A stretch of DNA of 64,000 bases, taken from contig CAWIIP010000002.1 in assembly GCA_963836235.1 (NCBI GenBank), forward strand, positions 1,088,001-1,152,000. The letters are read 5' to 3'. A model generated the notes under the pieces. That model did not search any database. It saw only the letters and a list, made by a program, of their open reading frames with translations, and was not told where the DNA came from. Shown one piece after another: positions 1 to 22,218 of the stretch; positions within the stretch are counted from its first letter, which is position 1, and every line of letters begins with the position of its first letter. Position numbers and translations under genes: made by a program. The stretch is from an uncultured Pseudomonadota bacterium. GTDB taxonomy: Bacteria > Oederibacteriota > Muellerivitia > Muellerivitales > Muellerivitaceae.

Positions 1-1090
1 GAGTGGGGGTCGGGCTGCAGACCGCCAAGATAGTCACTGGGTTGGAAGTAACCGGCCCCAGGGGTGCGCCTAAATTCAATTGAGCTGAGTTATTGAAAGT
101 ATTATTGCAACTATTGGCTGTCGCTGCGACTTGAACCGTCGCGGCTGAACCAGCCACTAAACTTCCCAAGTTCCAATTGACGATTTGCCCCGTGACTGAC
201 GGACTACCAGTGGCCGTAAAATAATTCAACCCAGCGGGCAAAGTATCCAACAGATTCACATTATCAAAATCCGGCGATTGGACAACTTGGACGTTGTCAA
301 AAACCACCTCCGAATTCCCCTGCACTTGGATTCCGGGAAAGCCTGGCGCCAATTGGACCGTTGTGCTTGCCGTGGCCACCTGGACTCCATTCACATAGGC
401 GGTCAATATGGCGGGGTTGACTCCCGACACGGCTAACTTGATCGTAGACCAAACCCCAGTGTTGATCGTCGCGCTCGCGGTCATAGGGGTTTGAAAAGCA
501 CCGCCATCCTCCTGAACCACTAGGTTGATGTTGTTACTGGTTCCCTGGGAAACCGTCATCTGGTATTGGCCGTCGGCAACATCATTGCGCCACATTAAGG
601 CAGCCGCGTTTCCACTGTTGGGAAAATAAAAATCGGCCTGGATTGAACCATCTGTTACCGGGCCCGCCCCGTTGTAAACCAATCGGCCGCAAAGGGGACC
701 GCATCCATTGTTATAAACCGCCGACACGGCTTGGCTTCCCGGGCTCGTGGTGCCGTTTAGTACGTTGATCACCGTCTGGGTAATGGCATAACCTGAACTT
801 CCGCCATAGGTCGTCCATCCCGTGGGCATCCCCCCTGCGGTGTCGGCTTCAAATGTGTCCATCGTGGTCACGGGCACGCCGGTGTTGCCATAGGCTAGGT
901 TGTAGATGACCACTTGCCCTCCCGTGACCACCGTGGAAGGGGAAGATAGGTTCAGGAAAGCGGAGGATGATATCGTTGATGTGGCCGTGGGTGAGGGCGT
1001 GGCGGTTTGGCCCAGGGCTTGACCCACCCTAAAACCTCCTCCCCAAAAGGCGATAAATAAAAAAGACAGAATTGTCCTCATCCAAAACAT
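1..1090 (-). CDS. Secreted protein, partial (3' end runs off the window): DUF11-like Ig domain interrupted by a ConA/LamG-like beta-sandwich, then the start of a Thr/Pro linker
   Basis: Not in the ORF track because it is truncated. ATG at 1090 with GAGG upstream; hand translation MFWMRTILSFLFIAFWGGG... (signal-like), GQVVIYNLAYGNTG ... NVNLLDTLPAGLNYFTATGSPSVTGQIVNWNLGSLVAG (DUF11-like); open to position 1. Confidence 0.8.
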   Translation of the reverse strand, partial: MFWMRTILSFLFIAFWGGGFRVGQALGQTATPSPTATSTISSSAFLNLSSPSTVVTGGQVVIYNLAYGNTGVPVTTMDTFEADTAGGMPTGWTTYGGSSGYAITQTVINVLNGTTSPGSQAVSAVYNNGCGPLCGRLVYNGAGPVTDGSIQADFYFPNSGNAAALMWRNDVADGQYQMTVSQGTSNNINLVVQEDGGAFQTPMTASATINTGVWSTIKLAVSGVNPAILTAYVNGVQVATASTTVQLAPGFPGIQVQGNSEVVFDNVQVVQSPDFDNVNLLDTLPAGLNYFTATGSPSVTGQIVNWNLGSLVAGSAATVQVAATANSCNNTFNNSAQLNLGAPLGPVTSNPVTILAVCSPTPT

Positions 1091-1112
1091 GAAAAACCTC
1101 TTTTTTTCGCCT

Positions 1113-2444
1113 TCACTTAGAATCCGTTGATCCTTTATATTTCACAAGCCAATCCCGCAAAGCCTTGTTGTCTGGTTTTAATTGGAGGACTTTTTCAAAG
1201 CACTGAATGGCATAAACTTTTTCATCCAAATGGTAATAATCATTAGCCAAGGCCTGCCAAAGAAGATCATCCGATGGTTTTTCCTTGATCGCATCCACGT
1301 AAATTCCCATGGCTTCTTTCAGTTTACCTTCTTTTTCTAACTCCTGTCCTTGCGCCAGTGGATCGGTGGAAATTTTAAAATGAACTTCCACATCTTTTGA
1401 GGGGGTTTCGGGCGCCTGCTGTACCACCGTCACCGGTACCTGAACGGGCACCCTCACCACTTCTTTAGGCAGGTCGAATTGGTAGCCCAAGCTGATGCGA
1501 TTGGATGACCCCAAACTACCGAATGGAAGATAAGCGTAATCCAAAGATAAGGAAGAAATTTTGATCCCTGCCCCGGCGGTAAGGCCTGTGAGACCCTCGA
1601 TCTGGTTGTCATAAAAAGTCTGTTGATAACCCAATCGTAGGGCCCATTGCCGGTCCAGTGAACCTTCCAATCCTGCTTGGGCGGAGCCCACTCCTCCCGG
1701 TGTCCAAGACCCGGCCAGGGCCGCCAAAAGGGTGAAATGGGGATTGAGATCAACAAGGACCGATCCCCCGCCATTCAATTCACCGGCAAGGGCATTACCG
1801 GCCACGGGAGTGCCAAAATTTAGGTAGGAGACACCCAGCCGCAGATTTTTTTGGGGTAACCAAAGAAGACCAGCGTCACCGGCCAAACTGGTGTAAAGGT
1901 CGTTCACGACCTTTTGTTGGAGTCCCCTCAGCGCGAGACCGACCGAAAATCCGGGGAACCATTCCATTCCCCATCCGGCGGTAAAACCCACATCACTATC
2001 ATTGAAACTACCTTCGGATACACCATAAGTATTCCGAAGATCGAGGCTCCCCCATCCCACATAATCCAACGAAAAAGCCAGCCCCCCCAAACTCCCAGCG
2101 GGAAAGCCCGCCGTAAGGGTTTCCTGAAAAGTCCCAGCCAAGTAGCTGTTATGGTGAAGGGCGACGTCGGGGCTTTTCAAATTCGCGAGTCCCGCCGGGT
2201 TGAAAAAAAGGGCGGAGGTGTCGTCGGCCACTCCCACGAAGGCTGATCCCAAGGCTAAGTCCCGGGCCGAGCCCTCAAAGTTTTCCAGGGGCGCCGCCAG
2301 GCCCGCTGTCCCCGTTACTGTTTGTGCAAACGAATTTTTAGAAAAAAGTGTCGTCATCAGAGAAATACATAGAAAGGCTAGGGCAAAAGGAATTTTAAGT
2401 TTTGAAAAGCCGGACGGCTTCATGGCTGCCTCCGGCAAAATCAT
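1113..2444 (-). CDS. PorV/PorQ (UPF0164)-family outer-membrane beta-barrel with C-terminal TPR
   Basis: SARDLALGSAFVGVADDTSALFFNPAGLA N-terminal motif, amphipathic strands ending ISLGYQF, then Pro/Val linker and TPR helices (AIQCFEKVLQLKPDN). Confidence 0.8.
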   Translation of the reverse strand: MILPEAAMKPSGFSKLKIPFALAFLCISLMTTLFSKNSFAQTVTGTAGLAAPLENFEGSARDLALGSAFVGVADDTSALFFNPAGLANLKSPDVALHHNSYLAGTFQETLTAGFPAGSLGGLAFSLDYVGWGSLDLRNTYGVSEGSFNDSDVGFTAGWGMEWFPGFSVGLALRGLQQKVVNDLYTSLAGDAGLLWLPQKNLRLGVSYLNFGTPVAGNALAGELNGGGSVLVDLNPHFTLLAALAGSWTPGGVGSAQAGLEGSLDRQWALRLGYQQTFYDNQIEGLTGLTAGAGIKISSLSLDYAYLPFGSLGSSNRISLGYQFDLPKEVVRVPVQVPVTVVQQAPETPSKDVEVHFKISTDPLAQGQELEKEGKLKEAMGIYVDAIKEKPSDDLLWQALANDYYHLDEKVYAIQCFEKVLQLKPDNKALRDWLVKYKGSTDSK

Positions 2445-2470
2445 AACATTCCCGGAAGGCTCTTCCTATT

Positions 2471-2498
2471 TATAGATACGTCGGATAAACAAAAGTTA
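2471..2498 (-). promoter_or_regulatory. Possible ECF-type promoter for the PorV-like gene
   Basis: Minus strand TAACTT-N16-TCTATA resembles the sigmaE consensus GAACTT-N16-TCTAA. Confidence 0.3.
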
Positions 2499-3140
2499 TT
2501 TGCCCGTTTCAATACTCACGTTTTTGGACATTTCGGTGGCGCCGGATTTGACCCGAATGCGGTAATCCCCCGTGGGGGCCTGGGACCCATCAGAAAGAAG
2601 GCCATCCCAACGGATCGACCATTTTCCCGGGGCAAGGCTGCCTTGGTAAAGGGTACGAACTGTTTGTTCTTTCGGATCGAGGATACAGACTTCCACCGGC
2701 GCCGGTTTATCCAATTCCACGACCACACTCAAGCGGTTTCCCTCGGCCGTGGAACCCGTCAAACGCTGGGGAACCTGGAGAGGCGGAGGTGGCAAGATAA
2801 CTTTGGGCCGGGAAAGGGTAGCGGGTATCACCACTTTCTCCAGAGGTGTTGCGGTCTGTGCTGTTTCCAGAACGGCTTTGGGCCAAAGAGACCAGGCGAG
2901 AATACCCGCCGAGAAAGTGGTCGCCAACAAGGCCAATTTGGTCAGGGAAAGGGCCGGATGAGGGAGCCCAAAGTTTTTCGGAATCATAGGTACTGGCAAT
3001 CCCATGGCCAGATATTCTTGTTTCATTTTTTCGCCGAACCGAAGGGCCTCTTCGGAGGAATTTCCCAAAAGGTCTTCAAGACTCTGGGCTTCGGCTTCGG
3101 TCAGATTCCGGCTGAAAAATTCATTTACTAGGTTTGTCAT
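2496..3140 (-). CDS. Putative anti-sigma factor with one TM helix and a C-terminal FlgD-Ig/sorting-domain-like module
   Basis: Overlaps the sigma stop codon (ATGA); short helical N-terminus (LTEAEAQSLEDLL), TM segment, Pro-rich linker, VRTLYQGSLAPGKWSIRWDGLLSDGSQAPTGDYRIRV. Confidence 0.7.
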   Translation of the reverse strand: MTNLVNEFFSRNLTEAEAQSLEDLLGNSSEEALRFGEKMKQEYLAMGLPVPMIPKNFGLPHPALSLTKLALLATTFSAGILAWSLWPKAVLETAQTATPLEKVVIPATLSRPKVILPPPPLQVPQRLTGSTAEGNRLSVVVELDKPAPVEVCILDPKEQTVRTLYQGSLAPGKWSIRWDGLLSDGSQAPTGDYRIRVKSGATEMSKNVSIETGK

Positions 3141-3742
3141 AGCTTCCCTTCTTGCAACATCTTCTCGACCTTTTCTTTCAGCCCTGCCGTACAGCGGGCC
3201 AAGCGGGACATGACCGTTCCCATCGGAACTTTCAAGGCCCTGGCTATCTCGATATAACTTGCGCTTTCTTTCATCCTCAATTGAAGCATCTTTTTACAGG
3301 GCTCCCCCATGCTTTCCAAGGCCCGGTCGACGGTTTCCATCTTCGCTTTCCGTTCCTTGTCCCGGTCCGCCTGATCGGCGGCTTCCAAAGCCCGGGGCTT
3401 AAGTCGTTCTTCCAGGTCTTCTTCGGCTTGCGACACCATCCGGCCGCGCTTTCGGAAATGCCGGTAACACTGGTGAATGCAAATTTGCGTCAGCCAGGTA
3501 TCCAGGCTGGAACGGAACTCAAACTGGTCTAACTTTTGGAAAGCAGCCAGAAAAGCTTCCTGAAGGATGTCCTCGATTTCCGGGTCATTGGACCCCATGA
3601 AATAAACACAAAAGCTATAGAGCTTTTGCTGGTGGGCCCGGTAAAACTCCGTTTTGGCCCTCTCGTCGCCCTTTAGGATCCGTCCAACCAGTTCCCGCTC
3701 GTCCAAAGGAGCTCCTATCGACTTAGTACCATTTCGGGCCAA
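3137..3742 (-). CDS. ECF RNA polymerase sigma-70 factor
   Basis: Region 2 (EDILQEAFLAAFQKLDQFEFRSSLDTWL) and region 4 (SYIEIARALKVPMGTVMSRLAR). Confidence 0.95.
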   Translation of the reverse strand: MARNGTKSIGAPLDERELVGRILKGDERAKTEFYRAHQQKLYSFCVYFMGSNDPEIEDILQEAFLAAFQKLDQFEFRSSLDTWLTQICIHQCYRHFRKRGRMVSQAEEDLEERLKPRALEAADQADRDKERKAKMETVDRALESMGEPCKKMLQLRMKESASYIEIARALKVPMGTVMSRLARCTAGLKEKVEKMLQEGKL

Positions 3743-3857
3743 AATATTCCCTGGCGGCCCTGAATTTATTTCGAAGAAAGTGAACTGACAAGATACGACT
3801 TATCACCGGAAGTAAAAAATCAGAGAGGTTTTCAATTGCTATGCCCGAATTAAAAGC

Positions 3858-3873
3858 ATGAAACCGGTTTCAT
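3858..3873. promoter_or_regulatory. Perfect 16-bp palindrome ATGAAACCGGTTTCAT, LacI/GalR-family (cre-like) operator candidate
   Basis: Matches TGWAANCGNTNWCA; lies ~115 bp upstream of the ECF sigma start. Confidence 0.6.
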
Positions 3874-4050
3874 TAGAAAGTTCAATGGATTATAAGACAG
3901 AAAGGATGGCTTCAAAAGGTTGGAGAAGAGTCTCTAGGATTAAAATTAAATTTATGCTGTTTTGAAATTACCGGTTCACCAATAGAACGGCTGTTCCATC
4001 AGTGAATCAAATTCTGCTTTAATTCCAACGGAAAATCCCATTTCGCAGTT

Positions 4051-7000
4051 TTAACGAAGGATCAGCAATTTCCCGATAAATCGGCCCTGGTTGGTTTGGA
4101 TCACAGTGTAATAAAGCCCGCTGGCCAGGGGTTTTCCCCAGTTGTCGTTAAGAATAACCGTGACCGGCCCATAGACCTGTGGTGGATAAGACTTCTCCTG
4201 GACCTTCCGGAAAGCGGTAGTGAAAATCTGAACCTTAATACCAGATTGCCCTAAGTAAGCTGGCGGTAAAACTTGAATGGGGTTCCCATCACTGGGATTA
4301 GGATAAAGAAGTGCCGCGGATCCGACTATTGGAGTAGGTGTCGGCGAACCGCCGGAAGCAAGGAAAACTGTCCCAGTCACGGTAGGCGTACTTGTAGCGG
4401 AGGCTGTGGGAGTGGCTGTAGCGCTTGTAGTAGGGGTTGTAGTGGGTGTTTCCGTGGGTTCGGCGATGGTAATGATGGCCGATCCAACCGGATTCCAATA
4501 AACAGCCGCGGGCTGGCCCGTAACGAGGTCCACACCTGAAGGGCCCGGAATACTGATCCCATAGGTACCGGTCGGAGCGGAAGAATTGAAATTGTAAACG
4601 ACCAAATAAACCTGTGACCCCAGGGTTCCCTGTAGATAGCCATTGACCCCGATATTGGCCGTCCCGTTATCCGAGGGATAGGTTCCCGTCCCCAAAAGGG
4701 TGTCCCCCGCATCCACCTGGCCATCACCATTATTGTCGGCGTAAATGGCGACGTTGGTGATCCCCGTCTGGTCGTTACCTGTTCCCGATGCAGTCAATTG
4801 GATGGCCGTAATGGAAACGGGATCGCTACCTTCATTAACAAGCTTAAATTGCATAACCGCCACAAGCGTGGATCCCGAAACTTGGGTGCTGTTGGAAGGC
4901 GGCGCCGGACCCGTCGAAACCGCGATAGTCACGCGGGTAGGGGAAGAAGTCGGTGAAAAAGTTGGGGACGGGGTAACCGTAAACGTCATCGAATCCGTTG
5001 GACTATTCGTGGGAGTGGCGCTATTTGGCAAAGTCGAGGTGGAGGTTGCCGTAGAAGTTGGGGTCCTTGTCACCGAGGGTGTAAGGCTATTGGCGGGTGT
5101 GGGAGTAGCGGTAATGCTGGCCGTCAAGGTCGTGGTGGATGTGGGTGTGAAGGTGGAACTAAAAGTGGCGGTGGTAGTTGCGGTATTGGTGGGAGTGATA
5201 GTGAACGTGGAGGAAGGCGTGAAGGTTAAGGATGGGCTTAAGGTTCCGGTGGGGCTATCGATTGGAGTAAAGGTGATCGTAGGCGTGTAAGTTACCGTGG
5301 AGGTGGTGGTTGAAGTGGCGCTATTTGTGGAAGTAAACGTGGCCGTGGAAGTGGGGGTCGCGGTTTCGGTCATGGTAGCGGTTCGCGAAGCCGTATTGGA
5401 GGCGGTCGAAGTGGCCGAGAAGGTTGCCGTAAAGGTGGCGCTTGAGGTGGGTGTTGAAGTTCGGGTCAGGGTGATTGTGTTGGTTAAGGTGTTCGTTGGG
5501 CTGGCCGTTGGACTATTGGTAAGGGTCCCGGTCACCGTTTTCGAGGGGGTTTGGGTCGGGCTTGCGGTAGAAGTGCGAGTCGGTGTTGCGGTAGGCGTAG
5601 GCCCGGTGGAAGTGACAAAAGCCGAGGCCATGATCATATAGGAAGCGGTGTAATAAAGTCCCGTTTCGTTCACCACCCAGGGCACGGTCTGATTGCCGCT
5701 GGAGTCCACGTAATCCCAATCACGGTATTCTTTCTCATAGGGCGGTTCCACATTGCCGGCTAACATCGGCGGTTGGGCTAGTCCCCCGGCGGCTTGGTAC
5801 CCATGGCTGGGCCCATCCGGAACGATTCCTGGGGGTGGGCCGAAGCTGGAAGGTCCGCTGTCGCTGATGCCGAAATTATCCGTTCCCGAATAATAGGGAT
5901 AGAGCGGGTCGATGACCGAAGCGGGTTTGCCGATGAAATTGTTATAGGAAAAAGTGACTCCGTAATTCCCGAACCAGGAGTGGTAAATACGCCAAATTCC
6001 ATGGGAGGCGCCAAGAGCGGCCGCGTTGGTCATGAGGGTCATGTTTACCGGGTTGCTTCCATTCATGTAATGAAGAAAGTCCTCGGCGTGTTGCAGGCAC
6101 TGGGCGCTGGTATAGGTCCCCGTCGCCCCCAGCTTGGAGGCCCATACTAGGTCCATGCCGTAGTTCATCTTTACTTCGTCAGCTCCCCAAAAATAGTCGT
6201 AACTGTGCATACCGGAGTTATAAAAATCGTTCTGGGCGAACAGGTCGCCAATCAGGTTGGACCAATCACCTTTCATGTAGTTGACCACTGACACAGTGGC
6301 GCCGGAGGCTTGCATGTAGGTCAACATACCCCAATTCTGCTGGAATAAATCCTCATTAAGCCAAAACCCATTCCAGGTTTGATAGTTATCCACGATGGAT
6401 TGGGCAGCGCTAATGATCGAGGCGGGCCCGCTAAGGGCTTCTTCCATACGGAAGATCTCAGCGGCGGCCCAAAACCGTTGATCACTGGCCGTGGCCGTGG
6501 ACACGAAGCTGTTCCAGGTGTTTTCCGCGGCGGTCCGTAGTGTCACCGCGTAACTGGCCAAGCCCGGTACTCCGAACATGACCCGGGCCGCGTGTGACAT
6601 CAGGGCCACGAACTGGGCCTCCCCCGCAGGATTAGGAGGATAGTAATAACGCGTGGTGGGATCGGTGCTGGGCGGGGAACCAGTCGTATAAACCGTTTGG
6701 TGCACCACCGAAAGCACATGGTGGTCGGTCATCTGCATCTTTAAGTACCAGTCCAATTCCCACTTGGCTTCGTTCAGGATATCGGGATTGCCGTTGCCCG
6801 ATTCGGGGATGTTGCTTTGCAGGCCTGTGAAAAGGGAGGGATTCCACTCGTAGGCCGTGAGGAGGTCCCAAAGAGCTTCCCCGCTGTCCCCGCCCCAATT
6901 GTTGCAGGCCCCGGTTGGAGTCTGGCCGATGTATTTGTTGTAATCCCCGGCATCGTGCCATCCCCCCATTAGGTTCAAGGTGCCGTAGCTGTTGGGAAAA

Positions 7001-7776: not shown

Positions 7777-10700
7777 TTAACGCAGGAGGAGGAGTTTGAC
7801 TACGGAGTGGTAACCGTTATGGTTTGAGATCACCACATAGTAAAGGCCACTAGCCAGAGGTGCCCCTGACTTGTCGTTCAGGGCCAAAGGAATATGCCAG
7901 GTCTTCGCTGTTGTACTCCCGCTCACCGAAGCCGTCACGCCCGGTGACGAGGTCGACACCGTGTTGTCCTGCACATCCCGGAAGGCCACCGTGAATATCT
8001 GCACACTCAATGTATCCGACGCTTGACTCAATGTCGCCGACACCGTAACGGGTCCTCCCGTGGAGGGGTTCGGGTAAACCACTGGTATCGAACTCGGTTG
8101 AAGGGTGGAAGTCGGCGTCAACGAAGCCGTGGAATTGGGCGTCGAGGACGGTGTAGAGGTCGCCGAGCTAATCGTGACGACAGCCCCGGGGACCGGCAAT
8201 CCGCCGAAGCCAACAGCTTGGCCATTGTTCCCTGCTCCGCCTGTCACACTGAATGTGTAGGTACCCGTCGGCGCGCTAGTCGAGAAGGTCGCCACCACTT
8301 CATAAGTCACCGCCCCATTACTGGCCGGAATGACATTATTGGAAGTTAAACTACTCAAATTAAAGGTCGCCGTCGTTCCAGTGAAACTGGCCGTGGAAAT
8401 AACCGTTCCATTGTCCACCAGCGATACGGAAGTGATTCCCGTAGGGGATGCACCTGACTCGGTAAGGGTCAAACTGCTCAAAGTGACGGCATTTGCTCCG
8501 GGATTGGTCAATTGGACTTGTTGTACGGCCACGTTGGAAGCTCCCGCCGGTTGAGTTGAATCGACAGGCGGGCTGGACCCTTGCGAAGCCTGCACCGTTA
8601 CTTGGGTGGGAGTCGGGGTCGGGGTGATCGTAGGCGTATTGGTCAGCGTGACCGTTGCCGTAAAGGTTGGGCTGTTGGTTAAAGTTTCGGTGGCCGTATT
8701 GGCCAGAGTATTGGTAGGTGTGGAAGTCGTTGTTTTAGTTTCCGTATTCGAAGTCGTAAGCGTTGGGGTGTTGGTAGCGCTATTCGCCAAGGTATTAGTG
8801 GCTGTCGCCGTGGCCGTACTGGTGGCGCTATTCGCTAAAGTATTCGTGGGCGTGAAAGTCGTTGTTTTAGTTTCCGTATTCGAAGTCGTAAGCGTTGGGG
8901 TGTTGGTAGCGCTATTCGCCAAGGTATTAGTGGCTGTTGCCGTGGCGGTATTCGTGGCACTATTCGCCAAAGTATTCGTAGGCGTCGACGTGGCCGTATT
9001 TATGGCCGTATTTGTCGTCGTACTGGTAGTCGTCGAGGTCGGGGTTTTGGTCGCCGTCATTGTCGTCGTATTCGTAGGGGTATTGGTAGCGGTCACCGTT
9101 GTCGTATTCGTCACCGTATTAGTGCCGGTTTTCGTGGCCGTGAAGGTCGCCGTGCTTGTTCCCGTCATAGTAGGCGTCGATGAAGGTGTTGACGTCAAAA
9201 CGGTTCCCGTGGGACTGAGGGTCGGCGTATCACTAATAGTGGCCGTGGCGGTGTTAGTCGTCGTGGAGGTAGCGGTTTTAGTCGCCGTGTTTGTCGCCGT
9301 TTCCGTAATGGTGGAAGTAGTCGTACCGGTAGTTGTGGAAGTCACCGTTCGGGTGGCGGTGGAAGTGGCCGTATTGGTCGCCGTATTCGTCAGGCTATTC
9401 GTCGGGGTGGCCGTCGGGCTATTCGTGGGGGAAGGCGTCGCCGTACGGGTTGCCGTATTGGAAGTAGTGCCTGTCGCCGTACTCGTGGTCGTATTGGTCG
9501 CCGTGCTGGCCAAAGTGCTGGTGGAAGTCGAGGTCACCGTTGAAGTAACCGTCTTCGTAGGGCTATTTGTGGTTGTATTCGTCGGACTATTCGTAGTCGT
9601 ATAGGTCGCGGTTACCGTAGCGGTATTACCCACCGTATTCGTTGGGCTGGCGGTAACGGTAAAGGTCGGTGTTCGCGTTGGACTGTTGGTGGCGGTCGTA
9701 GTAGGTGTAAATGTAGCTGTGGAAGAAGGGCTACTTGTAGCTGTCTTTGTAAGGGTCCCGGTTGGGGTTAACGTGGGAGTATTAACCACGGTGTTGGTGG
9801 CGGTGGAGGAAGGTGTTCCTGTGGGCGTACGAGTGGCGCTGGAAGTAGGCGTACCGGTCGGGGTACCGGGTACCACCGAGGGTGTGGCGGTATTAATGAT
9901 GACGGGCGTGTAATAGCCGTTGGAAATTTTGGCAAAATGCATGCAAACCTGGTCCACCGAATACCCCAATGTCGCGGGATTACCCGCAGTATCCCATTGG
10001 ACGGAAGTCACATTGGTCAATGCCTGGTCACGCGTGAGGGAGACGCTTCCGTTCGAGGCCAACCCATAGCAGAATCCCGCGCTGTTCCAGTCCTGGCACA
10101 TGATCTCGTTGTAAGTGACGGTGACGGCCTGCCAGGTTGTGGTCACAGGGAAAGTATAGCCGAACTGGTTGGCGTTGCCGCCATTGGCGGGGTCAAGGGC
10201 GGGGTTGTAGAAATTTAAGCGGATGGTCATGGGCGCCGTCGATTTAATATAAAAGTTGATATCCACCAGTGAACAGGGGCCCGCCCCACCAACCGTCAGA
10301 TTCAAGAGATTGTTATATGGCGCATTCAGGGCGGTGGCGATGGCAAATCCTCCATATGTAGCGGGAGTGCTCAAGCCGTTGTCCATCCAGAAACCCGTCA
10401 CGGACGCATCCCAATTAGTTCCCGCGGCACCGGGAGATTGGAGAATATAGGAGGGACCGGAGACAATGGCACGGGTGGGCGTGGGATTGACCGGGGTGTT
10501 GTTCAAACTGGCATAGGAAAAAGTAAACCAGAAACCATTGGTTGAATTGATAAGGTTGTCGTCCTCTAAATCATCCAGCATGAAGCAAGGCATGGGCGTG
10601 GGGGTGGCGGGCGGGGTGTTGGCGGTACAACCGCCGCAGGCCATGTTGGGAAAGTTACCCGTTCCCACCATCAAACACATGAGGCCCAGTGTGTCCTGGA

Positions 10701-18901: not shown

Positions 18902-18932
18902 AAAGGCCACCGGTACCCCGGTGGCCTTTTTT
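18902..18932. terminator. Intrinsic terminator between convergent genes
   Basis: AAAGGCCACCGG-TACC-CCGGTGGCCTTTTTT. Confidence 0.85.
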
Positions 18933-21900
18933 ATTTCCTTTTCAACCGGTATTTATTCTTGTTCCTGTTTTTAACCTTGGACTTCTTCACAACCCTCTTC
19001 TTTTTCGAAACTTTCTTGCGAAGTGAACGTAAACCTTTCCCCGACGATAGCCAAGCGGCTACCACATTCTCGATACGGGACGCTTTCGCCCACTGAAGGG
19101 CTCCCTCCATCTCCTCGGCGGAAAATCGCGATTGAAGCTCCATCGAAAAGGCCACGATGCGGTCTTTGCTCTCTTGCCGACAGGTGGGATGGTTTAAAGC
19201 CGCCAAAAGAAAGCTGATCGCCTGCCGTTCATCCCCCTCGTCCTTTAAGAGCTGAGCGATTCCGATGAGGGCGTCCACCATGAGGGGAATCAGCTTGCAA
19301 TCCAGTGCGATGCGCATGGCTTTCTGGAAATGAAGGCATGCCGCATCCATGCTTTCTTGGCGCAAAGCCACATCGCCAAGTCGGATATGAGATACCACCT
19401 GGCCCACGGTCTCCCGGCGCAGATCGAAACCACGCAGGCTTTTCCGGAACAAGTCCTTGGCTTCCTTCCAATTTTCCCGGAAAACAGCTACTGTTCCCAG
19501 GTGGTGCTGGTGCCAAGCCATTCCTTGGACGTTGGGTCCTTCCATGGCCCAGAGGCTGTAAGCCCGTTGATAGGACTTTTCTGCACCCCGGTCATCCATT
19601 TGGGCCAACTGGACGTTCCCCGTCAGGTCCATGATGAGGGATTCGCCCCGGATATCACCAAGCTTCCGGTAATCGACTAGGGCTTCCTCATAAAGATGGA
19701 GAGCTTCCGGGTAATCCCCCGTAGCCCAAGAAACCTGGCCCAGCAACCCCTTAGACCAGGCCACGGCCCGCGAATCCCCCAGGTCGCTGGAGATGGCCAT
19801 TCCTTCTCGGAACATCTGCCGGGCGCCGGCGTAGTCCCCGAACATGACCGCCTCATGGCCCAGGCTGTGAAACGACCAGGCGATTCCCTTGCGGTCGCCA
19901 ATTTCCAGGTAAGCTGAAAGGCCTTTCTGGTAATGGGCCCGGGCTTCCTCAAAACGCCCCACGTCGTGAAGAATATCGCCCAGAAGATTGTGGGAATAAG
20001 CTTGGGACCTCAGGTCCTTGTCGGCCAGGGAGTAAGCCAGGCTTTTTTTCACCAGTTCGGTAGCCTGGGAATGGCGCCCCAGCCGGTTTTCAATATGCCC
20101 CAAATTATTGAGGGACCAAACAATGCCAAAATGGTCGCGCACCCGATGATAGGCTTGATAACCTTTAGTGTAACAAGTCTTGGCTTTCTCATAGTGTCCT
20201 TGGGTTTCATTGACGATACCCAACCCGCTGAAAGCGAACCCCGCTCCTTTCAGATCTGAAGCCGATTGGTAAAGACGAAGGCTCTCTTCAAAAAAATTTT
20301 GGGCTATCTTGGGCCGGCCTAAAAGGTTTTCAAAGAAACCCGAATAAGCTTTTAACCGGGCCAAAAGGATTTGGGCGCTCTTGGGACTCGAGGAGACACC
20401 GTCATATTTTTTCCGAACACCCTCCACGGCCGCTTGAAAGTTTTCCTTAGCCTCCTGAAACCAGCCCTTGGTCTCAAACAGGAAAAAAAGCGACCCCAGG
20501 TAGGCGTCCATCTCCGGCTCCATTAATTGCTCCAAGGCCCTTTTCCAACCCTCCCGAATATTCCCAATCTCCTCCGTCAAATCCTCGACGACTTTTTTTT
20601 GGCCGGACCCATATAAGTTTTCCTCTTTTTTTTTCATTAGTTGGGCGAAATAAAAGCAATGGGCGTTGAAGACTTTTTCCCTTTCGGTGGAGTCGTCGAA
20701 TAATTTCTCCTTCGCGTAATACTTCAACAATTCATGGATCTCAAAGCGCCCATTGCTGCGGACCCGCAGAAGGGATTTGTTCGCCAGGTAAAGCAAAAGA
20801 TTTTCCGTGGCTCCCGCGACCTTTCGGGCCGCCTGCTCGCTGAAGCTTCCCCTGAAAACGGATATCCCACGGAGAACTTTTTTTTGGACCTCGGAAAGTA
20901 GTATCCAGGAATACTCGAACACTGCCCGGAGAGACCGGTGACGGGCAGGCAAATGCGGCATGGAAGTCGCCAGGAAATCCCGGCTGCTTTCTATTTTTTC
21001 GGCGATCTGGGATAAAGATAGGCTCGGCACCCAGGTGGCGCAAAGTTCCAGCCCCAGGGGCATGCCTTCTAAAAGGCGGCAAATTTCAAGCAGCGGTCTC
21101 CGGTCTTCCGGCTTGAGGGAAAAGTGAGGTTGGATTCGGTGTGAGCTTTTTAAAAAAAGCTGGACAGCGGAAGAAGCTTCCATTCCCTCGGTCCGGCCAT
21201 CGGAGGGATAACGGAGCCCTTTGACCTCCATCACTTTTTCCCCTTCAATCCCCAGGCTTTCACGGGAAGTGACGAGAATCTTCAGCCGAGGGGCACCATT
21301 GAGCATTTGTTCCACCCATTCGGAACCTTCGATGATGTGCTCAAAGTTGTCCATCACGAGAAGCATTTGCTTTTCCTTGAGATGGTTCAAAAGCTGGATT
21401 TTTGCGTCTTCCGGGCCTGCAAAGAAAAATTTGATGGCGCTGGCGATGCTCCCTACCATCAATTGACCGGACAAAAGGGGCGCCAGCGCAATCACATAAG
21501 TCCCGTCTTCGAATTTTTCGATCAAGTCCGCTGCCGCTTGGAGGGCCAGTCGGGTTTTCCCAAACCCACCCGGCCCCAAGAGGGTAATGAGCCGGGTAGA
21601 AGAATGAAGCAGGAGCTTCTCGATTTCCTCCATTTCCTCTTCTCTCCCAAAAAAAGGAGAACTTTGTGGAAGAAAGTTCTGTGGATAATTTTGAAGGGAT
21701 TCTGGGGGCTGGGTCGTTTCGAGGTTGAAATCGGGATGGATCAGGGAATAAATGTTTTGGGGTTCGCTCAAATCCTTGAGAAAGTGGGTGCCCATATCCT
21801 GGAGTCTGGCTCCGGGCGGCAGGGGGACAAAATGGACGGCGGGAACCGTCAGAAGGATTTGGCTGCCCCGGGCGGCGTCCAAGAGTTTAAGCGCATGGCT

Positions 21901-22218
21901 GAAATCGGGGCCAAAATAATTTTGGCCCAGGGGTTCGGCATCACCCACATGGATGGACACTCGAAGACCTGCTTTCCCGAACCGATCCCACAAATGGCTT
22001 TGGAAGTCTTTTTGTAAGGCAATAGCGGCTTTGGCGGGTTCACCACCCTCGAAGATTCCCAATACACCGGTGGGTGTCCGTCGCATCCAATGGACGCCGT
22101 TGGCATAGAGGGTCTCTTCAATGAGGAAATGCTGACAGGCCAGGATATGATCCACCTCGGTAGTGCCCCGTTCCTTGAATACCGACGCGTGATCGATTTC
22201 CGTGAAAAGAAAAATCAT
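18931..22218 (-). CDS. STAND (NB-ARC-like) ATPase with degenerate class III cyclase N-terminus and TPR repeats
   Basis: IFLFTEI, LRVSIHVG, HFLKDLSEPQNIYSL; Walker A GPGGFGKT; Walker B LLVMDNFE; GMPLGLEL; many TPRs; Lys/Arg-rich tail. Confidence 0.88.
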   Translation of the reverse strand: MIFLFTEIDHASVFKERGTTEVDHILACQHFLIEETLYANGVHWMRRTPTGVLGIFEGGEPAKAAIALQKDFQSHLWDRFGKAGLRVSIHVGDAEPLGQNYFGPDFSHALKLLDAARGSQILLTVPAVHFVPLPPGARLQDMGTHFLKDLSEPQNIYSLIHPDFNLETTQPPESLQNYPQNFLPQSSPFFGREEEMEEIEKLLLHSSTRLITLLGPGGFGKTRLALQAAADLIEKFEDGTYVIALAPLLSGQLMVGSIASAIKFFFAGPEDAKIQLLNHLKEKQMLLVMDNFEHIIEGSEWVEQMLNGAPRLKILVTSRESLGIEGEKVMEVKGLRYPSDGRTEGMEASSAVQLFLKSSHRIQPHFSLKPEDRRPLLEICRLLEGMPLGLELCATWVPSLSLSQIAEKIESSRDFLATSMPHLPARHRSLRAVFEYSWILLSEVQKKVLRGISVFRGSFSEQAARKVAGATENLLLYLANKSLLRVRSNGRFEIHELLKYYAKEKLFDDSTEREKVFNAHCFYFAQLMKKKEENLYGSGQKKVVEDLTEEIGNIREGWKRALEQLMEPEMDAYLGSLFFLFETKGWFQEAKENFQAAVEGVRKKYDGVSSSPKSAQILLARLKAYSGFFENLLGRPKIAQNFFEESLRLYQSASDLKGAGFAFSGLGIVNETQGHYEKAKTCYTKGYQAYHRVRDHFGIVWSLNNLGHIENRLGRHSQATELVKKSLAYSLADKDLRSQAYSHNLLGDILHDVGRFEEARAHYQKGLSAYLEIGDRKGIAWSFHSLGHEAVMFGDYAGARQMFREGMAISSDLGDSRAVAWSKGLLGQVSWATGDYPEALHLYEEALVDYRKLGDIRGESLIMDLTGNVQLAQMDDRGAEKSYQRAYSLWAMEGPNVQGMAWHQHHLGTVAVFRENWKEAKDLFRKSLRGFDLRRETVGQVVSHIRLGDVALRQESMDAACLHFQKAMRIALDCKLIPLMVDALIGIAQLLKDEGDERQAISFLLAALNHPTCRQESKDRIVAFSMELQSRFSAEEMEGALQWAKASRIENVVAAWLSSGKGLRSLRKKVSKKKRVVKKSKVKNRNKNKYRLKRK

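Follow-up and report, generated by a model that had tools for sequence, protein, structure and literature searches.

The sensing of insoluble polymers beyond the outer membrane is poorly known in diderm bacteria outside Proteobacteria and Bacteroidota. The stretch of 64,000 nucleotides (nt) analysed here (the window; positions 1,088,001 to 1,152,000 of contig CAWIIP010000002.1, assembly GCA_963836235.1, from an uncultured soil bacterium that degrades plant polymers) carries near its start genes for an extracytoplasmic function (ECF) sigma factor, a membrane-spanning anti-sigma-like protein ending in an immunoglobulin-like (Ig) domain, and an outer-membrane barrel of the PorV/PorQ family, and the question raised by this locus is what the Ig domain reads. 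A preliminary description proposed that the domain mimics the C-terminal domain (CTD) by which cargo is recognised in a type IX secretion system (T9SS). On balance, and with modest confidence, the present analysis favours a signalling cassette of four components. In it, the input read by the Ig domain would be the barrel together with a cognate CTD protein, the product of a fourth gene. The features of the locus are as follows.

3721..3750, minus strand: ECF-type promoter motif GGAATAT-N17-CTAAGT with RpoE-like -35 and -10 elements, ending 15 nt before the sigma TTG
3137..3706, minus strand: ECF sigma factor, 189 amino acids (aa) from the TTG at 3706 (longest open reading frame (ORF), 3137-3742)
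2496..3140, minus strand: single-pass anti-sigma-like protein, 214 aa
2991-3140, minus strand: N-terminal three-helix domain of the anti-sigma (residues 1-50), predicted model
2883-2951, minus strand: transmembrane segment of the anti-sigma (residues 64-86)
Residues 87-130 of the anti-sigma, minus strand: Pro-rich linker
2511..2750, minus strand: FlgD-type Ig domain at the C-terminus of the anti-sigma (residues 131-210), predicted periplasmic
1113..2444, minus strand: PorV/PorQ-family outer-membrane barrel, 443 aa
1479-2168, minus strand: barrel strands (residues 93-322), predicted model
1119-1361, minus strand: C-terminal tetratricopeptide repeat (TPR) tail of the barrel (residues 362-442), predicted periplasmic, with TPR_2 at 395-426
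2..1090, continuing past the window start, minus strand: secreted lectin-like protein with a T9SS-type CTD, 458 aa in the genome
G000:C2:1087714-1088000, outside the window: CTD of the fourth gene (last 95 residues)

The sigma, anti-sigma and barrel genes are arranged head to tail on the minus strand of the window. The stop codon TGA of the sigma gene overlaps the ATG of the anti-sigma gene as ATGA at 3137-3140, and the translational coupling noted in the preliminary description is thus borne out; 51 nt separate the anti-sigma and barrel genes and 22 nt the barrel gene from the CTD-protein gene. The latter, the fourth gene of the unit, is cut by the window start and had been overlooked. The source genome (G000) is assembled in 5 contigs totalling 3.97 Mb and is 99.4% complete, and when matches to ECF sigma, FlgD_ig, CTD and PorV models were combined and the loci read, four cassettes were found in it.

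Cassette A (window): sigma, anti-sigma, barrel, CTD protein; passenger a concanavalin A (ConA)-like lectin plus DUF11
Cassette B (C1:189036-193203): sigma, anti-sigma, CTD protein, barrel; passenger PA14 plus CBM9
Cassette C (C2:487057-490923): sigma, anti-sigma, CTD protein, barrel; CTD protein of 277 aa with no Pfam match
Cassette D (C2:130821-135299): CTD protein, barrel, sigma, anti-sigma; passenger NHL

In this genome the anti-sigma N-terminal domain, the anti-sigma C-terminal domain, the barrel and the CTD are each a subfamily of their own, numbering exactly four strong members. The cassette is conserved in candidate division FCPU426. Thirteen related loci were retrieved with a nine-row anti-sigma alignment, and 12 of them carry all four genes in a total of 13 cassette copies, L007 containing two; the exception, L017, is at a contig end. 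The barrel of L012, missed in a first pass, is included in the later count, and the anti-sigma of the L006 cassette is in two pieces. A scan of the phylum yielded 20 further, more divergent loci, of which 14 have all four genes (in one the CTD-barrel pair is 5 kb away); among the other six, three have a CTD protein and no barrel in the available sequence, one has neither, one has a TPR protein without a barrel match and one is cut by a contig end. Altogether, the sigma gene, a TPR-tailed barrel and a cassette-type CTD protein are all found within 7 kb of 28 of 37 anti-sigma genes. Some anti-sigma match was obtained in 94 of the 99 genomes scanned. Among the 150 places listed, full-length matches belong nearly all to one family, where they occur in 30 of 30 genomes; outside it, one was listed in G039 and an N-terminal piece in G034, the rest being the Ig part only. 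The arrangement is far beyond chance, because it occurs four times in one genome and at 28 of 37 anti-sigma loci.

The Ig domain of the anti-sigma resembles FlgD. The protein gave a score of 49.2 bits with FlgD_ig (PF13860; cut-off 27) over residues 131-199, and no second Pfam domain above cut-off, the RseA family likewise giving no match. In an AlphaFold model three N-terminal helices (residues 4-45) were confidently predicted; a further helix (67-84) covers the hydrophobic stretch and is joined by a disordered, Pro-rich linker to a beta-sandwich (138-210) whose predicted local distance difference test score (pLDDT) is about 90. The protein lacks a signal peptide and is modelled as an N-in, single-pass membrane protein whose Ig domain follows the cytoplasmic domain. 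The preliminary description was correct that a FlgD-Ig-like module at the C-terminus is the only extracytoplasmic fold. A profile of the N-terminal domain matched four proteins strongly in the source genome, each beside an ECF sigma gene, and one weakly (expect value, E, 2.7e-4). The same profile gave 347 matches in 1.84 billion representative proteins; among the best 150 of these, 132 are at least 180 aa long, and in 127 of the 132 the C-terminus is formed by this FlgD-type domain, beyond which a median of 1 residue follows. The FlgD-type domain is, to judge from sequence, the obligate and only sensor of the anti-sigma family, because 127 of these 132 full-length proteins end in it. In some metagenome-assembled genomes the anti-sigma orthologues are split or carry a single stop codon (L006:7947-8657; G044:C61, G070:C54, G054:C11); these could be assembly errors or decaying copies.

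Searched against the PDB, a profile of the Ig-domain family found Salmonella FlgD (E 6.4e-12) and no T9SS CTD at E <= 10. Foldseek placed FlgD hook caps first (E 3.6e-5, 31-34% identity) and T9SS CTDs (NucA 8glk_D, PorZ, PorU and RgpB) at lower ranks (E 2e-3 to 1e-2, 14-22% identity). Of the two models proposed earlier for this C-terminus, then, FlgD_ig was matched and the secretion-tail model was not, there being no match to TIGR04183 or Por_Secre_tail at E <= 0.1. The protein is not FlgD itself, as all NCBIfam FlgD equivalog models scored far below their cut-offs. Within the source genome, the Ig-domain profile gave 90-145 bits for the four anti-sigmas and at most 41 for any other protein, and profile-profile alignment (hhalign) of the Ig domain with the cassette-type CTD gave a probability of 9.5%. 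The Ig domain thus scores above the FlgD_ig gathering threshold and resembles solved FlgD; with type A CTDs it has in common a C-terminal beta-sandwich, but it has no CTD-model match and no Sec-exported passenger. It is nearer to flagellar FlgD than to secretion CTDs, with the fold class shared.

The third gene encodes a PorV/PorQ-family barrel, as had been stated earlier. The protein scored 114.7 bits with PorV_fam NF033709 (cut-off 90) and remained below the equivalog cut-offs for PorV (40.6 vs 250) and PorQ (86.5 vs 220). Its start is probably the second in-frame ATG (Met8), at about nt 2423. In the model (mean pLDDT 83.5) a FadL-like fold of 14 strands is joined by a disordered Pro/Val linker to five TPR helices, and the closest solved proteins are Flavobacterium johnsoniae PorV in the T9SS translocon (8gl6_F, E 4e-14; 6h3i_F, E 1.1e-11), then FadL and TodX. 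Of the 21 PorV-family ORFs in the source genome, the four cassette barrels score 419-522 bits with a profile made from them, versus at most 155 for the other paralogues. A TPR tail is present on all four and on one of the 17 others; the tail profile is non-specific, matching many TPR proteins, and was used only in combination with barrel matches. In a complex prediction, the barrel with its tail (residues 41-443) and the anti-sigma (residues 88-214) scored 0.12 and 0.05 vs a mark of 0.32, with 40-row alignments and without controls, and this counts neither for nor against a contact. Two other PorV-family barrels of this genome appear to be fused in frame to FlgD_ig-type domains (G000:C4:87761-89962, 733 aa; G000:C1:161508-163865, 785 aa), and homologues elsewhere have an OmpA domain in place of TPR (P0150, P0163, P0169).

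The product of the fourth gene contains Laminin_G_3 (a ConA-like lectin domain) and DUF11, and its N-terminus, read from the translation, is signal-peptide-like. At its extreme C-terminus it matches TIGR04183 above cut-off (24.9 bits, C2:1087777-1087974), as expected of a secreted protein with a T9SS type A CTD; Por_Secre_tail PF18962 gave 21.3 bits (E 3.3e-4), below its cut-off of 27. With a profile of the cassette-type CTDs, those of the four cassettes scored 105-154 bits and other CTDs of the genome at most 68. The passengers differ while the CTD is constant: lectin plus DUF11, PA14 plus CBM9, pectate lyase plus malectin (at two loci with A-type sigma, anti-sigma and barrel), NHL/SGL propellers and two large proteins. 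Ten of 34 CTD proteins consist of a signal peptide and a CTD only (118-146 aa), so that a shared mechanism must work with the CTD alone, to which a passenger would add specificity. No consistent pattern of charge complementarity was found between the CTD, the anti-sigma C-terminal domain and the TPR tail. A fifth protein with a cassette-type CTD (G000:C2:1883065-1884552, 495 aa, 67.6 bits) has no cassette around it in the match lists.

The sigma factor has only sigma-2 and sigma-4 domains (Sigma70_r2, E 2.3e-15; r4_2, E 1.2e-4) and scored 92.8 bits with TIGR02937 (cut-off 42.9). It falls among ECF (group 4) sigma-70 factors, by the ECF model above cut-off, an adjacent anti-sigma gene and a conserved upstream motif. 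The nearest solved sequences are 8z6g_B (RNA polymerase sigma factor), 6in7_B (sigma-H factor), Escherichia coli sigma-E (1or7) and SigW, and with sigma-E, AlgU and SigW as its nearest relatives it is an RpoE-like ECF factor. No Pfam or NCBIfam match to a SigI-type sigma or an RsgI N-terminal domain was obtained among the cassette A proteins. Orthologues are 187-194 aa long and begin at an aligned TTG or GTG. The true start is probably the TTG at 3706, since it aligns with the orthologue starts and has AGGAG and an invariant motif upstream.

This motif, GGAATAT-N17-CTAAGT, has invariant columns across eight orthologous upstream regions. In the form GGAATA-N18-CT[AT]A[GT] it was found 18 times in about 530 kb of loci, 16 times just upstream of sigma genes, 4-36 nt before the start codon (at L016 the nearest-ORF entry names a different ORF). 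B-type sigma genes have GGAATAA-N17-CTAAT, and further cassette types have GGAATA with a CACTAT-like -10, read by eye. The RpoE consensus has a GGAAC-like -35 and a TCTAA-like -10, which the cassette motif resembles. The conserved motif suggests that the sigma factor is autoregulated. The A-type motif has a single exact match in the genome, at the sigma gene to which it belongs; allowing up to three mismatches, nine matches were found in the window vs 12.75 expected. A relaxed motif gave six matches in the genome, about the chance number by our estimate. Sigmas A and B account for two of these; another is beside a GH28 gene, and another 218 nt upstream of a GH62+CBM3 gene, 10 kb from cassette B. 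In the set of loci, one match away from sigma genes is likewise upstream of the GH62+CBM3 gene near cassette B. As regulon members, the GH62+CBM3 and GH28 genes are leads only.

Co-divergence of the components was assessed from pairwise distances over 28 complete cassettes, with partial correlations controlling for sigma divergence. The raw correlations among all component distances are 0.57-0.88. After the control, the barrel and the CTD remain correlated (partial r = 0.72), and the anti-sigma C-terminal domain correlates with the barrel (0.59), the CTD (0.55) and the TPR tail (0.41); the corresponding values for the anti-sigma N-terminal domain are 0.04, 0.10 and 0.11, and that for TPR tail and CTD is 0.09. 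Such a pattern would be expected of coupled extracytoplasmic partners. Synteny across genera, the near confinement of the TPR tail to cassette barrels and this co-divergence uphold the functional association of the sigma/anti-sigma pair with a PorV-like barrel that had been proposed from the window.

What was observed comprises gene content, domain folds, conservation, the specificity of the subfamilies, a conserved promoter and the co-divergence. The following scheme is proposed from these observations; in it we infer which way the signal runs, the step of proteolysis and the regulon. The RpoE-like sigma factor would be autoregulated and held by the cytoplasmic three-helix domain of the anti-sigma, which would reach into the periplasm by its Pro-rich tether ending in the FlgD-type Ig domain. 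The cassette-specific T9SS-type CTD of the secreted protein would dock on the dedicated barrel, and the Ig domain would read in the periplasm whether the barrel holds its cognate CTD protein, either through the TPR tail or turns of the barrel or by binding unexported CTD protein. When occupancy changes, the anti-sigma would lose its activity, the likeliest route being regulated proteolysis of the RpoE/RseA kind; transcription by the released sigma factor would then extend to its own operon and probably to polysaccharide-degrading genes nearby. In the cassettes with PA14 plus CBM9, lectin, or pectate lyase plus malectin passengers, binding of extracellular polysaccharide may set the state of the barrel. 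The scheme includes two variants that are inseparable here, a FecA-FecR-like sensing of the surface via the barrel and TPR tail, and a PorA-like sensing of the CTD protein in the periplasm.

Several points weigh against this scheme. Every protein contact in it is inferred. The kin compared in the mirror-tree analysis are not independent and partial Mantel statistics are unreliable; the anti-sigma N-terminal domain is short, which by itself lowers its correlations. No recognisable barrel is present nearby in the available sequence of four of the 37 loci (L022, L024, L025 and L037, the last with a TPR protein that has no barrel match). The CTD-only proteins have no obvious ligand-binding part, so that polysaccharide sensing cannot be the general mechanism. 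By eye, no sigma-type promoter was found upstream of the neighbouring GH9 and GH8 genes, and the two motif matches away from sigma genes in the 530 kb of loci compare with about one by chance, by our estimate. In the A- and B-type orders, moreover, the barrel and CTD genes are downstream of the sigma gene and would be co-induced with it, for which a role as output fits equally well.

The last point leads to the alternative that survives best, although we consider it unlikely, at somewhat under one chance in four. Here the barrel and CTD protein would be members of a surface-display regulon driven by the sigma factor, and the Ig domain would sense envelope stress, oligosaccharides or peptidoglycan. 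Besides following the sigma/anti-sigma genes in the A- and B-type cassettes, where they could be transcribed from the autoregulated promoter, such pairs exist independently, as 12 of the 21 PorV-family genes follow a CTD gene, mostly without a sigma gene; L024 and L025 have a sigma/anti-sigma pair and a CTD protein without a barrel. Against it, almost none of the barrels without a sigma link carries the TPR tail, the barrel and CTD subfamilies occur in the genome only with these sigmas, save one orphan CTD protein, and adjacency persists through permuted gene orders. It is also the periplasmic domain of the anti-sigma that co-diverges with the barrel and the CTD, and not the cytoplasmic one. 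In the D-type order, where the CTD gene and barrel are upstream of the sigma gene, a sigma-type promoter precedes the CTD gene at none of the 12 loci: in eight the GGAATA hexamer is absent within 300 nt, and in four a hexamer is present with no fitting -10 by eye. The lack of a sigma-type promoter at this position fits a role of the CTD protein and barrel as input.

A weaker alternative, which we regard as improbable, is that of the preliminary description, in which the Ig domain is a tethered mimic of a secretion signal that the PorV-like barrel or the secretion machinery binds, pulls, cleaves or out-competes, sigma activity being thereby set by export capacity. In favour of this, the domain lies extremely close to the C-terminus (a median of 1 residue follows it in 127 family members), its beta-sandwich fold class is common to T9SS CTDs, the barrel gene directly follows the anti-sigma gene in cassette A, and a study of Porphyromonas gingivalis proposes that a build-up of unexported CTD protein raises SigP signalling (PMC12152298). 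The absence of a TIGR04183 match on the anti-sigma stands against it, as does homology of the domain to FlgD by sequence, with no T9SS CTD in the PDB found by its profile; the domain stands apart from every cargo CTD in its genome and from the cassette-type CTD. The reading loses its main premise since the domain, by profile and by fold, is FlgD-like and not CTD-like. The anti-sigma, furthermore, has no signal peptide and would be anchored N-in in the inner membrane. CTDs are held by PorV on extracellular loops, beyond the reach of a 45-residue tether starting at the inner membrane, and each cassette already encodes a true CTD protein, a more natural ligand of the barrel. Incidental adjacency of an ordinary stress sigma/anti-sigma pair to one of many PorV paralogues, conceivable in a genome with 21 PorV-family ORFs and 47 FlgD_ig matches, is very improbable given four paralogous cassettes and conservation in all 30 genomes of the family and in many genera.

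The favoured scheme, with the barrel and its CTD protein as input, can be compared with known systems. Like RpoE-RseA-DegS/RseP, the cassette has a sigma-E-like factor and a similar promoter, and a C-terminal feature of an outer-membrane-destined protein would be read in the periplasm; unlike it, the anti-sigma itself would do the reading with an Ig domain, in place of a PDZ protease, and there is no RseA-family match. In FecA-FecR-FecI and in the SusC-like/anti-sigma/ECF units of Bacteroides polysaccharide utilization loci, a barrel signals to a single-pass anti-sigma via its own periplasmic domain, and an autoregulated sigma factor is linked to nutrient-acquisition genes, as is proposed for the cassette. 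The cassette barrel, however, is not a 22-stranded TonB-dependent transducer but a 14-stranded barrel of the PorV/FadL type; its periplasmic element is a TPR tail at the C-terminus, and a CTD protein is a distinct fourth partner. No Pfam match to TonB-receptor, STN or FecR domains was found among the cassette proteins, which sets them apart from the FecR/FecA type. The RsgI-SigI systems of Clostridium thermocellum are similar in the several paralogous pairs per genome, the connection with degradation of plant cell walls and the use of carbohydrate-binding module (CBM)- or PA14-type modules for sensing, but there the CBM is inside the anti-sigma of a monoderm, whereas in the cassette the carbohydrate-binding part is on a separate CTD protein of a diderm and the sigma factor is ECF and not SigI.

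PorU-PorV and PorZ-PorQ are cognate cargo-barrel pairs of the T9SS. As in these pairs, a private FadL-like barrel, encoded alongside, would hold the CTD protein of the cassette at the surface; the T9SS barrels have no TPR tail and are not known to be wired to an anti-sigma. In the source genome, 12 of the 21 PorV-family genes are directly downstream of a FlgD_ig/Por_Secre_tail CTD gene, on the same strand and within 361 nt (examples of PorV-family ORFs are G000:C2:1635231-1637168, C4:670057-671880, C4:574242-575933, C4:565831-566886 and C4:366708-367604), which suggests that private cargo-barrel pairs are a general rule in this organism, similar to the pairing of PorP/SprF-type barrels with type B CTD proteins described in PMC9143113.

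The closest parallel is the PorA system of P. gingivalis. According to two reports, the CTD of PorA binds PorV (PMC7712824), and this domain by itself activates the SigP cascade, through its action on PorY in the periplasm (PMC12152298); the authors suggest a rise in the signal when export is blocked (PMC12152298) and interpret PorA signalling in terms of robustness or of a secretion-state signal (PMC7712824; PMC12152298). PorA-PorV-PorY/PorX-SigP thus has, like the cassette, a lectin-like CTD protein, a PorV-type barrel, an inner-membrane sensor and an ECF sigma factor (PMC7712824; PMC12152298). The P. gingivalis sensor is the histidine kinase PorY with the response regulator PorX, and the genes are dispersed; in the cassette an anti-sigma ending in a FlgD-type Ig domain would be the sensor, the barrel is a dedicated TPR-tailed paralogue, and the genes form one unit that occurs several times per genome, twice in clusters of carbohydrate-active enzyme (CAZyme) genes. 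PorK, PorL, PorM and PorU, moreover, were undetected in the cassette host, in searches whose controls were silent or below cut-off. By analogy, the cassette would be a direct-wired counterpart of PorA–PorV–PorXY–SigP, or a TonB-free FecIRA.

Trans-envelope control of an ECF sigma factor and a CTD as signal are already known; the parts list and its wiring appear to be new. The preliminary description took its idea to be undescribed, and in this it was right in part: a CTD feeding an ECF sigma factor is in print for PorA, while the wiring of an ECF sigma, a FlgD-Ig anti-sigma, a PorV-like barrel and a CTD protein was not found in literature searches. FlgD, PF13860 and PorV do not appear in the main text and one supplement of the ECF reclassification paper (PMC7826278). 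In a broader and more tentative view, for which the chances are perhaps one in three, the FCPU426 cassette is a TonB-independent three-way sensor, made of the CTD protein, its private barrel and the FlgD-Ig anti-sigma, that reports polysaccharide or the loading of the display system, and PorA is one instance of a general CTD-as-signal principle that predates, and is independent of, the T9SS motor. If the proposed wiring is true, the very recent finding of a CTD as signal would extend to a different receptor class in a different phylum, and a function would be given both to the unexplained multiplication of PorV-like barrels in genomes without a T9SS motor and to a FlgD-type Ig domain outside flagella. 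With four small genes and a defined promoter the cassette is a compact, testable candidate. The paralogous cassettes are apparently orthogonal and have a swappable sensor domain and distinct promoters, which makes them possible parts for engineered polysaccharide-responsive switches.

The host itself may have a motor-less T9SS-like display system. Its genome has 47 FlgD_ig matches at E <= 0.001 and at least 47 CTD matches, and a SprA-like frame of 2029 aa (C1:512305-515895) matches SprA in three pieces, below cut-off. No match to GldL, GldM or the PorP family was found in the genome, an absence left unvalidated since no control genome was positive either; GldK gave no match, the controls being positive only below cut-off, in three genomes. 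PorU was matched only in its CTD part and the catalytic part was not found, in a search for which few controls were positive, and those below cut-off.

Two of the four cassettes, A and B, are in CAZyme clusters. The neighbours of cassette A are genes for glycoside hydrolase (GH) family GH28, a beta-helix protein, GH43+CBM6, GH53, a PL4-like lyase, GH9, GH8 and GH5, and those of cassette B encode GH30+CBM3, GH30, GH62+CBM3 and GH30+malectin+CBM3. A protein of about 600 aa, with a long and unassigned N-terminal part before a C-terminal AraC-type helix-turn-helix (HTH_18), is encoded in both clusters (L038:3432-5240, minus strand; L039:13158-14960, plus strand) and may be a second regulator of them. 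Cassette C is directly downstream of G000:C2:491040-492944 (minus strand), which encodes a 634-aa protein with an N-terminus that, by eye, is like that of flagellar hook/rod proteins, a curious neighbour for an anti-sigma whose Ig domain is FlgD-like. No RNA run covering window positions 1-4100 was found; three soil DNA runs from one study contain part of the region. The long V/E/G-rich antisense ORFs at 4745-5641 and 8606-9604 of the window, both on the plus strand, mirror the Pro/Thr-rich linkers of the GH9 and GH8 genes and are almost certainly not genes. Adjoining the CAZyme cluster, at 18931-22218 on the minus strand of the window, is a gene for a 1095-aa STAND-type NTPase (NB-ARC/AAA_16) with many TPR repeats.

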